Source of the DNA: Escherichia phage EC.P1
Length of the DNA stretch: 64,000 nt
Sequence record: PQ657772.1
Strand: one strand, 5' to 3'
Numbering within the stretch: the first letter of the stretch is position 1; each line of letters starts with the position of its first letter. Made by a program: the position numbers and the translations under genes. Of this stretch, positions 1 through 64,000 are shown one piece after another. Below the pieces are notes generated by a model. The model saw nothing but the letters and a program-made list of their open reading frames with translations. It was not told the DNA's origin and ran no database searches.

Positions 1-148
1 CTTACAATTGAAGGGTCTAGTGTATATTTCAGTACTTTTTGTAATGTTTGGTTATCTTTGTTTTGTTCAAGGATAGATTTTTTACCCAGAGTACTGCTAG
101 TATTTTTAATGCTTTCAAGAATTGCTAAAATGCTCATTGTATATTCCC

Positions 149-1351
149 TTATAGATAATACTTTCCAATGTAAAGTTTATTACTTAGTGATAGCTGGACG
201 TGACAAGGTTTTTCTTGGTAGTAACGAGTTGATGATGTTTTATTTTCTGTTGGTGGGAAGAAAGGAGAACGGTATCCATTCCATGTACCAAATGATACAT
301 GTTCGTTTAAATCCACATCCATTGTCATAATACCATTAGCATCAATTTCAACTGGATACGCACTGTATCGTTCAAATACATCAGTGTATTGAAGAATATA
401 ATCACCATTGCGACCATAATAACTTCTGGTTGTATTGTTCTTTACACCAAAGAAAACACGATATGCCTGTTCATCAACTTTACACATGAACGGTACGTTC
501 TCATTGAATCGTCCATTACTCATTATATCATCAGGATTGATTTCTTCGTACTTTACTTTCAAATCTTGTGCTTTAAACGACTTATCACTTATCAGTACTG
601 GAATATTGCTTTCACATAATGGGTTACTGCGATTTCGTTGGATATTTTGCCAAAATGCATTAGCTTTAACAATTTCATCTTGAACTGTAGTTTTTACATT
701 CAGTGCAGCACTTGGTTCTAACGCATAAGTTTCAAGACGAGCATTAAGAGCATATGTCCCACGAGTAGTATTATATACTAAGTGATACTTGGAACTCTTA
801 TCAGAAAATGAAAACTCTTTAGTTTTCTTGATACAAATAGCATTTACTTTACCACAATAATAGTAATCTTCCTTATTGTGTCTAAAACCATCACCCACTT
901 TCAATTTAGAAACAACTTCTTTTTGATGTTCTTTCTTATTCTCCTTCTCAACCAATTTAGCAAAGGTTTTAGTTTTACCGTTAATTAGTTCTAAACTATT
1001 ATTAAAGAACATAGGTTCAACAAATACACCCTTAACAATATCATTGTTGATGATAAGGTCGTTCATGTTTTTAGCACTCACCAAGAACTCGAAACCTTCA
1101 GGGTGACGTATGGTGAAGTATGTTTCGCGAGCATGAACAGTGAGCTTATGTACCACAGAAAACCCAATTGTAGGCACATTATCAATCCATAGTGAAGGTA
1201 GATTGTTTTTCTTAGCCCAGTACTCGGCCTTTTCTTTTTTAGTCTCAAACGCTTTCGTGTGTGATTTTGTGGCATCTATAATGTAACCAGTAACTTGGTT
1301 ATGATTTACATATGAACGAGCCACAAATAACTTCTCTGGAAAATCCATCAA
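149..1351 (-). CDS. hypothetical protein (400 aa)
   Basis: Long minus-strand ORF; no motif recognised by eye; nested ORF 1078..1275 is an alternative frame. Confidence 0.6.
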   Translation of the reverse strand: MMDFPEKLFVARSYVNHNQVTGYIIDATKSHTKAFETKKEKAEYWAKKNNLPSLWIDNVPTIGFSVVHKLTVHARETYFTIRHPEGFEFLVSAKNMNDLIINNDIVKGVFVEPMFFNNSLELINGKTKTFAKLVEKENKKEHQKEVVSKLKVGDGFRHNKEDYYYCGKVNAICIKKTKEFSFSDKSSKYHLVYNTTRGTYALNARLETYALEPSAALNVKTTVQDEIVKANAFWQNIQRNRSNPLCESNIPVLISDKSFKAQDLKVKYEEINPDDIMSNGRFNENVPFMCKVDEQAYRVFFGVKNNTTRSYYGRNGDYILQYTDVFERYSAYPVEIDANGIMTMDVDLNEHVSFGTWNGYRSPFFPPTENKTSSTRYYQEKPCHVQLSLSNKLYIGKYYL

Positions 1352-1767
1352 ACAGTCCTCATTGTGCTAATTGCTTTTAATGTGTTAAACAATGCACCAT
1401 ATTTTACTTGCATTAGTTGATCCCCAGCAGGAAGATTCATACGCATAACAGACATGTCTTCAACCATTTCAGATGTACATAGTACTGCTACACATGTAGT
1501 TGCATCATTTAATCCGGCTTCATTGAATTTAGCGAATGGCACTTTTCCCTGCTTACAAAGGTCATCATAATAAGAATTTAACTTATCATGACCACCAGCA
1601 TTTAGTACTACAATAGTTTCGTGGTCATAATACCATTCATCAATAATAGTACTGAAAGCAGTACCTTCATATTCTTTAATTAGTTTTATGCCAGCATGAA
1701 ATGCTTGAATGCCAGCTTGGACACCTTGACAGTACATGTTTGTTAAGCAATATAATTTCATTTCCAT
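1348..1767 (-). CDS. hypothetical protein (139 aa)
   Basis: ORF in operon-like series, 4-nt overlap with downstream gene. Confidence 0.55.
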   Translation of the reverse strand: MEMKLYCLTNMYCQGVQAGIQAFHAGIKLIKEYEGTAFSTIIDEWYYDHETIVVLNAGGHDKLNSYYDDLCKQGKVPFAKFNEAGLNDATTCVAVLCTSEMVEDMSVMRMNLPAGDQLMQVKYGALFNTLKAISTMRTV

Positions 1768-1985
1768 ACCTCTTGTTTTTCTACAAACCCTTTACCATCA
1801 CAATGTGGACAAGCATAATAACTGCGATAGTCTTCAGATGGAACTTGTTGTGTACCATTACATGTAGGGCACACTTTACGTGCTCCAGAAATAATACGTT
1901 CATGGTGTTCAGCTTGTTTTGCTGAATCAAAAATACGACCATCTTCAGTTTGGTATTTTTCTACCATAACTTGAATTACTTTCAT
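1758..1985 (-). CDS. small zinc-finger protein (two CxxCxGxG motifs, DnaJ-type)
   Basis: CPTCNGTQ ... CPHCDGKG in a 75-aa ORF. Confidence 0.5.
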   Translation of the reverse strand: MKVIQVMVEKYQTEDGRIFDSAKQAEHHERIISGARKVCPTCNGTQQVPSEDYRSYYACPHCDGKGFVEKQEVWK

Positions 1986-1995
1986 TTCTATTTCC

Positions 1996-2301
1996 TTATA
2001 AAAATGTTAAATCTTCAGTACTTAATTGTAATAATTTACCATCATATTCAATTTCAACATATACATTTTGGTCATAAACAGCAACTACACGACTAATAAC
2101 TCCACTCTTCACCACATTCTTTTTGTAGTTGAATTCAACTGAGCAACCAATAAGTTTCTTTGATAGAATCTCACGTATTTGATTAGCATGGTCTTTTAGG
2201 ATAGAATTAATAGATTTTTTCACAACATATCTATCATTTAAGTATTTTTTAACTACATCATGCATATTATTACCTTTTGAAGCGGTTAAATGAGTACTCA
2301 T
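1996..2301 (-). CDS. hypothetical protein (101 aa)
   Basis: ORF, minus strand. Confidence 0.5.
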   Translation of the reverse strand: MSTHLTASKGNNMHDVVKKYLNDRYVVKKSINSILKDHANQIREILSKKLIGCSVEFNYKKNVVKSGVISRVVAVYDQNVYVEIEYDGKLLQLSTEDLTFL

Positions 2302-3028
2302 CTTTTTCTTTACGTAAGTATCTCATCCCACCACTTTGGGGAGTTGCAAGAGTCAAATCACCAGTTAAGAACTGACTATCAATCCAGATACGATTACCAT
2401 AAATGAGTGGGTCGGATACTGCGGTATGACCACTAAAGACGCAATGGATGCCATCAAGTCTAGGGACGTAATATGTGTTATTTTTCTTGCAGTAGTCGAA
2501 TGTATCACGGTCCCACAAGCACTTCTCAATTATATCAGCACTAAGTGATTTTGTCCCACTAACGAAACGTTCCCATGTGGTATATTCCAAAGGAACACCA
2601 GCATGAACCAGTCCAATCTTCAATCCTCGGTGATTGATTTGGATAATCATAGGGAGATCCTTTAAGTACTGACGGAAGAACTGTATACCTGTCTCACCAA
2701 CTTCATCAAGAAATTTATCACCACCATTACTTTGCCAGCAATGATACCAATCCCTCATTGTTTCGGAGTCCACACACATCATCTCGTGGTTCCCAGCAAT
2801 CATAAAACGGTTTTCACCGAAAAGGAATTCAAACAGTAGTTTGGAATTCTGGTCACCACGGTCAATAACATCACCTACACAAAAAACATAGTCATTATTG
2901 GTGATACCAAATTCTTTCTTGGTAGCATCCCACAGTTTTCCATTGCCGTGTAAATCACCAACGATATATAAATCTTTATCATCCGGTACTGTAACTTCCA
3001 AAAAATGTTTCATTATTGTTCCAACCAT
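2270..3028 (-). CDS. calcineurin-like metallophosphoesterase (PPP-family Ser/Thr phosphatase-like)
   Basis: Signature motifs GDLHG, GDVIDRG, GNHE in canonical order. Confidence 0.75.
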   Translation of the reverse strand: MVGTIMKHFLEVTVPDDKDLYIVGDLHGNGKLWDATKKEFGITNNDYVFCVGDVIDRGDQNSKLLFEFLFGENRFMIAGNHEMMCVDSETMRDWYHCWQSNGGDKFLDEVGETGIQFFRQYLKDLPMIIQINHRGLKIGLVHAGVPLEYTTWERFVSGTKSLSADIIEKCLWDRDTFDYCKKNNTYYVPRLDGIHCVFSGHTAVSDPLIYGNRIWIDSQFLTGDLTLATPQSGGMRYLRKEKDEYSFNRFKR

Positions 3029-63100: not shown

Positions 63101-63322
63101 TTAATTACGGATAAAGTGATAAAGACCATTATCATCATTAACGCCCCATACTGATTTACCATTTAAACCAGTGAAGCCGGATTGCAATTCAATATGGAAA
63201 CCGTTAGCATCAACGACGAAAACTTTTTTATTTTCATCCCGATAGCATTGATATTCTTCACCTGCTTTAAATGCTGCATCATTCAGAAGATTTGAAGCGT
63301 GAACGCAGGTCATAGTAGTCAT
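63101..63322 (-). CDS. hypothetical early protein (73 aa; start revised to MTTMTCVH...)
   Basis: Track ORF 63101..63379 runs into the promoter cassette; AAAAGGAA precedes the ATG at 63322. Confidence 0.5.
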   Translation of the reverse strand: MTTMTCVHASNLLNDAAFKAGEEYQCYRDENKKVFVVDANGFHIELQSGFTGLNGKSVWGVNDDNGLYHFIRN

Positions 63323-63377
63323 CGTCTTGATTCCTTTTAGTACCAGGGAGAACCATTTCCCCCTCTCGATATAAAAC

Positions 63378-63405
63378 ATTATACGCTCATTGAGATAGTT
63401 TGCAA
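63378..63405 (-). promoter_or_regulatory. sigma70-like promoter (TTGCAA, 16 nt, TATAAT) plus 5'UTR hairpin
   Basis: Minus strand TTGCAAactatctcaatgagcgTATAAT then GAGAGGGGGAAATGGTTCTCCC. Confidence 0.6.
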
Positions 63406-63439
63406 GTACTTTTTATCAAATAGTTTTCAGTACTGAATA

Positions 63440-63546
63440 CTTATATAATAGATACACTTCCGCACCCTATGGGTCAGTGAGTTATCTCTCAATGGATATA
63501 TAATAGCAAAGGGACTGACCGGAGTCAATCCCTTTTTTAATCTTTT
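63440..63546. repeat. conserved intergenic element, copy 2, with terminator-like hairpin (63509..63532) and T-run
   Basis: gcaccctatgggtc ... atataatagcaaagggactgaccggagtcaatcccttttttaatc. Confidence 0.6.
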
Positions 63547-63990
63547 TTATCGTGTTACCTTACTTGCTGCCACATCACGCTTTTTATAGTACTGATTCCA
63601 GATATTGCTGGTTAAACCGTAATCAAGTACTTTAATAAGTCCATTACGATCCTGGCCGATATTCTGTTTTCTGATATCTCTTATCGTTAGTGTTGATAAT
63701 GTATCATCAACGTGTTGTAGTGCATCAGCAAAGCGGTGCTGGCGTTCGATTGCATTACGTTTAATATTGTACTTTAATTCATTGCACGCGTTTACGTGCT
63801 TCACACTGCCTTTGCTTGCAGTACTCAACCGATCCATAACGATAAACATATTATCAGGATCGCATAAATGCATATGCACCTTTGCAAAGTACTGTTTCAA
63901 CTGAGGGCGGTCATAGTCTAAAAAATTCCATACCTTACATTCAGTTTCATTTTGTTCGACACCCGCATCACAATTCGCGACCTTAATCAC
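63547..63990 (-). CDS. hypothetical protein (147 aa)
   Basis: ORF at the upstream edge of the window. Confidence 0.55.
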   Translation of the reverse strand: MIKVANCDAGVEQNETECKVWNFLDYDRPQLKQYFAKVHMHLCDPDNMFIVMDRLSTASKGSVKHVNACNELKYNIKRNAIERQHRFADALQHVDDTLSTLTIRDIRKQNIGQDRNGLIKVLDYGLTSNIWNQYYKKRDVAASKVTR

Positions 63991-64000
63991 TAACCGATCA

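Follow-up and report, generated by a model that had tools for sequence, protein, structure and literature searches.

Why should one palindromic hexamer, AGTACT, be so frequent in the DNA of a virulent phage of Escherichia coli? The question is raised by a stretch of 64,000 nucleotides from Escherichia phage EC.P1 (PQ657772.1), called the window below, for which a preliminary description based on the letters alone had claimed strong over-representation of this word. The over-representation is real, is under strong selection and extends across the lineage; its mechanism can be drawn in outline only. The window has a GC content of 33%, carries 144 of its 148 crude ORF (open reading frame) genes on the minus strand and is 97–98% identical to Asteriusvirus jumbo phages of E. 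coli. Its nearest relative, vB_Ec-M-J (OQ718158.1), is also the closest complete genome; window positions 1–25,000 correspond to positions 78,730–53,728 of that record, on the minus strand, and genome-wide counts were made over its 357 kb of unique sequence.

By exact counting, AGTACT occurs 202 times in the window and ranks first among all hexamers. In 100 dinucleotide-preserving shuffles it was found 17.2 ± 4.2 times, with a maximum of 29, an excess larger than had been claimed. Markov models of orders 0, 1, 2, 3 and 4 gave expectations of 21, 17, 39, 86 and 172. The third- and fourth-order values come near the count because such models are built on enriched sub-words: GTAC occurs 568 times with 193 expected, and AGTAC and GTACT are enriched as well. 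When the background was trained with GTAC neighbourhoods masked, the expectation was 12–14; a masked third-order background is not computable, as the masking removes needed transitions. The enrichment survives the unmasked third-order model, within two-fold of which the preliminary description would have given up its claim: the observed/expected ratio is 2.4, and the z-score of 12.6 is the highest of all hexamers. Among 8-mers the highest z-score, 15.1, belongs to CAGTACTG, with 40 copies. The flanks of the 202 sites are informative at two positions only, −1 (C in 90/202) and +6 (G in 84/202), which extends the dyad and gives the motif as (C)AGTACT(G). The symmetry of the dyad reaches on to T/A at −2/+7. 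No helical periodicity of 10.5 bp was found in the positions of the sites, only a peak at 20–23 bp, due to promoters, and the 3-bp coding period. Earlier counts made by eye were right for 59.0–64.0 kb (31) and 10.0–11.0 kb (6); the first 3.0 kb holds 10 sites, not 9. The enrichment does not extend evenly over 1–64,000, as had been supposed: there is no AGTACT in 41,465–50,598 (block 1) or in 53,448–59,421 (block 2), and the pattern is the same in PBECO4 and vB_Ec-M-J.

An excess of this kind could have no function and simply follow from codon or dipeptide bias, from duplicated paralogs, from biased mutation or from the loss of other palindromes. Such an origin would suit the fourth-order expectation, close to the count, and the abundance of paralog families in the window, but the high-order model only re-uses the enriched 5-mers. 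The sites lie, as had been stated, in all three reading frames (72, 40 and 60) and in intergenic DNA (30). When synonymous codons were shuffled with the protein and the codon usage of each gene kept, 47.3 ± 5.9 in-gene copies were obtained, compared with 172 observed (z 21). Ser-Thr dipeptides are written AGT-ACT in 72 of 122 cases, four times the 17.9 expected from codon usage. Selection on the DNA word and not on the protein, the view put forward at the outset, survives both controls, and the check on codon, dipeptide or paralog bias proposed at the same time refutes that bias as the cause. Inheritance through paralogs is not the cause either, since AGTACT is equally enriched in unique, non-paralogous structural genes and in three other genera. 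Sites are also kept above flank identity, other allowed palindromes such as TGTACA are at expectation in vB_Ec-M-J, and the AGTACT word differs between paralogs that a block boundary separates. An absence of function is thus very improbable. The Ser-Thr dipeptide is itself about twice as frequent as expected from amino-acid frequencies (122 versus 62, in window genes outside the two blocks). DNA-level pressure for AGTACT appears to have altered protein sequences.

In the 357 kb of vB_Ec-M-J, AGTACT occurs 983 times, with about 111–121 expected, and is the top hexamer, far ahead of the others. Its density is about 2.4 per kb over early, replication and structural genes, on either strand, and about 7 per kb in the direct terminal repeat (DTR). 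Over the 300-kb core the sites are spread more evenly than random, with variance-to-mean ratios of 0.85, 0.77 and 0.69 in intervals of 0.5, 1 and 2 kb (1 = random; P ≤ 0.004), and every 2-kb interval contains the word. It is the sole strongly enriched 6-bp palindrome of this genome (ratio 8.8; the next, GATATC, 1.6), from which 23 of the 64 palindromic hexamers are missing. Palindrome enrichment had been called unusual for a phage; this holds, the rest of the genome in this lineage being extremely palindrome-depleted. Avoidance of a restriction target (ScaI/Eco255I-type site) is not what is seen, AGTACT being 9-fold over-represented while 23 palindromes are eliminated. The tetramer GCGC is absent from the window and from vB_Ec-M-J, where about 354 copies are expected.

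Among the one-off neighbours of AGTACT, those most enriched in vB_Ec-M-J are the outer-position variants AGTACA, AGTACC and GGTACT. Together with the substitution of AGTACA where ACT is banned (see below), this fits a recognition core in which a mismatch at an outer position is allowed. AGTATT and AATACT are at 1.2–1.5 times expectation; as these one-transition neighbours are not depleted, an origin of the sites through biased repair of the very-short-patch (VSP) type is rejected.

Spacing more even than random, with no empty 2-kb interval over 300 kb, is predicted by a need for nearby sites everywhere, and the density is independent of gene class and strand. A strand-directed DNA transaction (nicking, Okazaki priming or recombination initiation) would have these properties if an enzyme read the 5-mer AGTAC on one strand, the palindrome then being an economical placement of AGTAC on both. 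A primase, a helicase, ligases and numerous HNH endonucleases are encoded by the phage itself, and sequence-specific nicks are known in T5 and some Pseudomonas phages. This explanation is nevertheless improbable. The strand polarity in block 1 that prompted it is fully accounted for by the ACT ban, known primases read trinucleotides, and no fixed position in promoters is predicted. No replication-type skew switch was found at genome scale. The boundaries of the terminal repeat do not coincide with AGTACT either, on which ground a link of the word to the genome ends was rejected.

Conservation was assessed against PBECO4, a different species with about 88% identity over the aligned part. There, 86 of 107 aligned AGTACT sites are intact (80%), a sign of purifying selection, since the figure over all hexamers is 56% and flank identity predicts about 0.57. 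In samples of other genomes, AGTACT was counted 125 times in 50 kb of RaK2 (11-fold enrichment), 105 times in 50 kb of GAP32 (7-fold) and 93 times in 40 kb of the Yersinia phage fHe-Yen9-04 (9-fold). Four enterobacterial jumbo-phage genera, Asteriusvirus, Alcyoneusvirus, Mimasvirus and Eneladusvirus, have the enrichment in common. AGTACT is not enriched in PA5oct (1 versus 11 expected), Atu_ph07 (1 versus 5) or T4 (6 versus 10), and a 50-kb sample of E. coli K-12 holds 3 sites (about 0.06 per kb) and 342 GCGC. In positions 170,001–210,000 of XacN1, a Xanthomonas phage and distant jumbo relative, AGTACT is absent and 28 palindromic hexamers, AGTACT included, are missing; the palindrome GATATC occurs 35 times versus 7.8 expected and, from these counts, may be an "alternate" iterated palindrome.

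The distribution of GCGC was recorded in the same genomes. It is at zero in RaK2, GAP32 and fHe-Yen9-04 too; PA5oct, T4 and E. coli (6.8 per kb) have it at normal levels. GATC, CTAG, CCGG and GGCC are depleted in the phage. The loss of GCGC could stem from restriction avoidance or from a phage nuclease directed against host GCGC.

The most informative clue is the presence of AGTACT in promoter spacers, which had been correctly pointed out, as the word lies at fixed offsets from the −35 and −10 hexamers of early promoters. The part of the DTR contained in the window (59,291–64,000) holds short early genes, with a separate sigma-70 promoter for every one of them, and 31 AGTACT, about 7 per kb. 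Examples of these promoters are TTGACAaagtatatcAGTACTgTATAAT, AAAAAGTACTTGCAT and AGTACTaTTGACAtagcttgatAGTACTg. An independent consensus scan returned promoters matching 12 of 12 consensus positions at 63,096–63,069, 62,602–62,575 and 61,074–61,047, each with an AGTACT box (Table 1). In the full DTR of vB_Ec-M-J, AGTACT starts at −27, touching the −35 hexamer, for 21 of 44 TATAAT, and at −7, ending 1 nt before the −10 hexamer, for 14 of 44. The same promoter design, AAAAGTACTTTGACAaaatggttagAGTACTtTATAAT, is found in GAP32, which belongs to another genus: AGTACT is at −27 to −29 for 13 of 38 TATAAT and at −7 for 10 of 38. Pairs of sites 20–23 bp apart are over-represented (43 versus about 18), early promoters accounting for half of these pairs. 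In the terminal repeat and in GAP32 alike, these are dyad-symmetric sites, fixed in position and overlapping core promoter elements, as in operators. The strongest evidence that AGTACT would be read in duplex DNA is that these boxes precede the transcription start and keep a set phase relative to the −35 and −10 hexamers of the predicted promoters.

Two other elements accompany the early promoters. Many early transcripts in 59,291–64,000 have, a few bases past the predicted start, a 5′ hairpin that is rich in GC and conserved (GGGGAGAAtagTTCTCCCC and variants), for example downstream of the promoters at 62,575 and 63,069, and likewise in vB_Ec-M-J; these hairpins may serve in stabilisation or processing. 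A 28-nt stem-loop, AAAGGGATTGACTCCGGTCAGTCCCTTT, lies in two identical copies at 63,508–63,535 and 60,748–60,775 on the minus strand, each embedding the TTGACT −35-like hexamer of a predicted promoter. This stem-loop, present twice in the terminal repeat, putatively unites a terminator with a promoter.

The two stretches without the site differ in kind. Block 1 contains a zone, 41,798–50,472, in which ACT is wholly absent from the coding strand (Table 1), although 57 AGT (order 1, local) or 123 (order 0) are expected there and ACT occurs once per 57 nt elsewhere in the window. The second-longest run free of any trinucleotide in the window, for the rare CCG, is 3.5 kb. The ACT-free run is conserved, with 8,458 nt in vB_Ec-M-J (28,769–37,225) and 7,620 nt in PBECO4, and GAP32 has no AGTACT-free blocks of this sort. 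Thr codons in the zone are ACA, ACC and ACG only, and the encoded proteins have no known function and are confined to Asteriusvirus. The ban on ACT makes AGTACT impossible in the zone and AGTACA the nearest allowed word. On the coding strand AGTACA is found 46 times, both between genes and in every frame, a 14-fold enrichment, which shows that the pressure for the motif persists. Paralogs flanking the block boundary have AGTACT outside the zone, in 50,599–53,447, and AGTACA inside it, at homologous positions. The strand polarity of AGTACA in block 1, 51:1, arises because ACT is wholly absent from the coding strand. AGTACT does not behave as a polar element comparable to Chi or KOPS (FtsK-orienting polar sequences): the word is palindromic and the polarity of AGTACA follows from the ACT ban.

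In block 2 no trinucleotide is banned, and AGTACT is at 0 versus 1.9 expected from composition and about 25 at the bulk density. The array in this block is drawn from a 23-member family of overlapping paralogs of 65–90 aa (PHROG 4148, about 37% amino-acid identity). The AGTACA polarity, here reversed, is weak (9 versus 2, p 0.07) and due in part to a conserved Ala-Val-Leu codon run in the paralogs. The array (53,448–59,290) has a distinct AT skew of about −0.2. A foreign origin of the site-free blocks was rejected, since they are kept in PBECO4 despite 56% amino-acid identity, the forbidden palindromes are still missing and paralogs straddle the boundaries. A replication origin between the blocks, or a polar element of Chi, primase or type-III kind, was also rejected on the lack of a genome-scale skew switch and on the explanation of the polarity by the ACT ban.

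The absence of ACU from the mRNA of 18 genes over 8.7 kb points to an ACU-reading activity in the life of the phage, and suggests messages made immune to an ACU-specific endoribonuclease, which might be a MazF/PemK-like host toxin or a phage RNase. Enterobacterial MazF/PemK toxins cleave U^ACU (PMC10864209). A likeness, limited to the ACT-free block, is with ACA-less, MazF-resistant messages, from which a three-base word is also wholly missing; the difference is that the block is a natural phage operon and that its nuclease is only putative. It is conceivable that AGTACT as a whole acts at the RNA level, AGUACU containing this cleavage site and tagging both sense and antisense transcripts for cleavage or decay, with the ACU-free operon encoding the messages meant to survive. 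The early messages of the terminal repeat are indeed the richest in AGUACU. That AGTACT is such a tag is unlikely, however. Boxes at exact −35/−10 offsets precede the transcription start and are sensible only on DNA, the dyad symmetry reaches into the flanks, and it is hard to see why purifying selection would maintain a self-destruct tag in late structural genes, at 2.4 per kb. Nicking or priming and RNA-level cleavage are possible roles of the word that match the promoter data poorly.

A shorter interruption lies within the AGTACT-rich early region, whose sites occur in all three frames and in intergenic DNA. This gap, 11,119–13,362, holds a 310-aa ORF (12,232–13,164) and a 242-aa ORF (11,478–12,206). 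The 310-aa protein has an N-terminal zinc-finger/CoiA_N-like motif and is annotated as "endonuclease" in relatives; family and structure searches gave no family assignment for either protein. The gap probably arose by later insertion, of a homing endonuclease for instance, and has yet to acquire AGTACT. The gap "endonuclease", the annotated regulators and the proteins of the blocks were considered as enzymes acting on the word or as its binders, and set aside as they gave no informative family or structure match.

An orphan N6-adenine DNA methyltransferase encoded in the window (Table 1) belongs to the phage Dam family, PF05869, and is a candidate modifier of AGTACT. Together with the downstream cytidylyltransferase-like gene it forms a pair (17,015–18,069) that is conserved, by tblastn, in every AGTACT-rich genus sampled. 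The pair was found in Asteriusvirus, Alcyoneusvirus, Mimasvirus, Eneladusvirus and Salmonella phage Munch. The word may then be an epigenetic mark, AGTACT or its GTAC core being methylated by this enzyme, and some 1,000 ScaI-type sites would indeed be very exposed to AGTACT-specific restriction unless modified. Methylated AGTACT could be a self mark, a replication-coupled timer on early promoters or a protection; a parallel is HIP1 (Highly Iterated Palindrome 1) of cyanobacteria, a target of orphan methylases. We regard methylation as a serious rival, if rather unlikely to be the explanation, and it is compatible with recognition of the word by a protein. Well-known phage Dam enzymes methylate GATC, and the specificity of the PF05869 enzyme for AGTACT is only putative. 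Methylation alone gives no reason why more sites pay off, and the undepleted AGTATT and AATACT are contrary to a repair-driven, VSP-like origin of the sites. PA5oct lacks the enrichment, and its genome paper mentions no methyltransferase. The enrichment is nested, GTAC < AGTACT < CAGTACTG, much as in GATC < CGATCG < GCGATCGC for HIP1 (PMC4390886). RaK2 DNA is reportedly methylated and resistant to many enzymes (PMC3622015), but the methylation reported is at CpG, which AGTACT does not contain.

As the best-supported reading, we tentatively propose that AGTACT, optimally CAGTACTG, is a word in double-stranded DNA, positively selected for recognition by a dyad-symmetric, sequence-specific factor that this phage lineage specifies. 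It would have a twofold use, as dual operator at early promoters and as dispersed self-mark; the proposal is plausible, if somewhat short of probable. At an early promoter the factor would meet two AGTACT about two helical turns apart, one at the upstream edge of the −35 hexamer and one ending 1 nt before the −10 hexamer. A dimer on these boxes would collide with RNA polymerase, so that the word is most likely a dual operator switching early genes off (or on). The remaining copies, about 850, distributed evenly through genes of all classes at about one per 410 bp, would form a dense mark, by which phage DNA (about 2.8 sites per kb) would be chemically recognisable against host DNA (about 0.06 per kb). 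The same factor, or the methylase with a reader, would load on phage DNA or mark it selectively. The enrichment, the selection on DNA, the conservation, the even spacing, the restriction to the lineage and the promoter architecture are shown by the counts above; we infer that a protein binds the word and represses early promoters, and that the dispersed copies act as a mark of self.

Several points weigh against this proposal. About 85% of the sites are within genes, away from promoters, and an operator role alone explains neither these sites nor the even spacing. With about a thousand sites per genome and hundreds of genome copies, an ordinary repressor would be titrated, and the factor would need to be very abundant. 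Pfam scans of annotated regulators and DNA-binding proteins yielded no binding-protein candidate, and no TF1/HU-like protein was found among them. The data do not separate protein binding from methylation, nicking or priming at AGTACT, and the model gives no reason why block 2, of about 6 kb, has no site.

A broader proposal is possible but doubtful. Rak2-like phages, which are without base hypermodification, might use a sequence code in which GCGC (none in the phage and about 7 per kb in E. coli) would mark the host and AGTACT (about 2.8 versus about 0.06 per kb) the phage, for an abundant factor timing early shut-off via the dual operators. The ACU-free operon would also reveal an ACU-specific RNase, a host toxin or a phage enzyme, during infection.

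The closest known phenomenon is HIP1 (GCGATCGC) and the alternate HIPs. HIP1 is a short palindrome, hyper-abundant genome-wide in all frames and in intergenic DNA, conserved beyond its flanks and distributed non-randomly; it is specific to lineage, some lineages having alternate palindromes, orphan methylases modify it, and its function has been unsolved for decades (PMC5861425, PMC4390886). AGTACT has the properties of a highly iterated palindrome: many-fold over-representation in the window and in vB_Ec-M-J, presence in all frames and in non-coding DNA beyond protein or codon usage, and retention between related genomes beyond background. It is lineage-specific and found with an orphan methyltransferase, and XacN1 enriches GATATC instead. 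The two differ in that AGTACT is an AT-rich word of 6–8 bp in a virulent phage, enriched 9–15 fold, and HIP1 is found in cellular genomes with an enrichment of 15–300 fold. Methylation of AGTACT is only putative, and the word has defined early-promoter positions and coexists with the total elimination of other palindromes.

Other systems resemble it in part. TF1 of Bacillus phage SPO1 is an abundant phage-encoded DNA-binding protein that recognises phage DNA via hydroxymethyluracil and selectively coats it; the sites it prefers overlap with strong early promoters of the long terminal redundancy, and it represses these promoters. The likeness is in a phage-DNA-selective factor, proposed here, and in sites at terminal early promoters, an iterated word taking the place of hydroxymethyluracil. 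The stoperators of cluster A mycobacteriophages are 13-bp asymmetric repressor sites, 20–35 per genome, intergenic and oriented with transcription, in temperate phages. They too are dispersed in many copies throughout a phage genome as well as at an early promoter, whereas AGTACT is symmetric, 6–8 bp long, present in genes too and borne by a virulent phage. Chi, KOPS, DNA uptake sequences (DUS) and uptake signal sequences (USS) are likewise words selected genome-wide by which DNA machines tell self from foreign, but they are asymmetric and orientation-dependent and AGTACT, a palindrome, has no orientation. The SlmA-binding sequence of E. coli, GTGAGTACTCAC, has an identical AGTACT core. Its GTG...CAC flanks are not seen around the 202 sites, where G occupies −1 in 11 cases and positions −3 and −2 are at background; sites for SlmA or LexA were rejected because their flanks do not match.

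Chi, the E. coli octamer GCTGGTGG, is in excess in vB_Ec-M-J, with 23 + 11 copies on the two strands versus about 1.3 + 1.0 (order 0) or 6 + 4.6 (order 3) expected. Nine copies in one orientation lie within the terminal repeat, as if blunting RecBCD entry from the genome end. Positions in the window are given in Table 1 with the other features.

Table 1. Positions in the window of AGTACT-rich and AGTACT-free stretches, early promoters and other features
Feature	Coordinates	Strand	Details
AGTACT-rich early/middle gene region	1–41,464	nearly all genes minus	154 sites, ~3.7 per kb; local order-1 expectation 11.6
Longest AGTACT gap within the rich region	11,119–13,362	−	2.25 kb, GC 0.29; third-longest gap in the whole relative genome
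Orphan N6-adenine DNA methyltransferase, phage Dam family PF05869	17,545–18,069	−	Pfam E 2e-32; NCBIfam; PADLOC orphan methyltransferase
ACT-free zone	41,798–50,472	genes minus	8,676 nt, 18 consecutive genes; zero ACT on coding strand (zero AGT on plus)
AGTACT-rich stretch between blocks	50,599–53,447		17 sites, 6 per kb
Block 2, AGTACT-free tandem paralog array	53,448–59,421	−	starts at inner terminal-repeat boundary
Inner 4.7 kb of the ~21.5-kb DTR	59,291–64,000	−	exact match to annotated DTR end of OQ718158.1
Perfect-consensus early promoter	61,047–61,074	−	AGTACT 61,064–61,069 overlaps final base of −35 (TTGACAGTACT)
Dual-box early promoter AGTACTaTTGACAtagcttgatAGTACTgatgTAATAA	61,370–61,403	−	boxes 61,398–61,403 and 61,376–61,381, 22 bp apart; homologous site vB_Ec-M-J 19,415
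Perfect-consensus early promoter	62,575–62,602	−	AGTACT 62,582–62,587 abuts −10 hexamer
Perfect-consensus early promoter TTGACA-16-TATAAT	63,069–63,096	−	AGTACT 63,076–63,081 ends 1 nt upstream of −10
Early promoter TTGCAA-16-TATAAT	63,378–63,434	−	AGTACT 63,405–63,410 overlaps first T of −35; second 63,429–63,434, 24 bp upstream
Chi GCTGGTGG	18,812	+	
Chi GCTGGTGG	1,592; 9,215; 60,653; 60,876; 62,455	−	

The motif is not described in the genome papers on Sharanji, fEgEco12, RaK2, CBB, PA5oct and XacN1, nor under "AGTACT phage" in the literature searched, where no hyper-abundant palindrome was found described for a phage; HIP1 has resisted explanation for thirty years. With about 1,000 copies and fixed promoter positions in a tractable E. 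coli virus, the role of such words becomes directly testable. Just as testable, and separate from it, are two other leads, the operon without ACT and the complete loss of GCGC. For engineering, the use of ScaI sites, recoding and synthetic genomes could each disrupt AGTACT, and the k-mer signature could serve to spot this phage clade in metagenomes. For the biology of the group, the finding bears on how unmodified jumbo phages without a phage nucleus distinguish their own DNA from that of the host.

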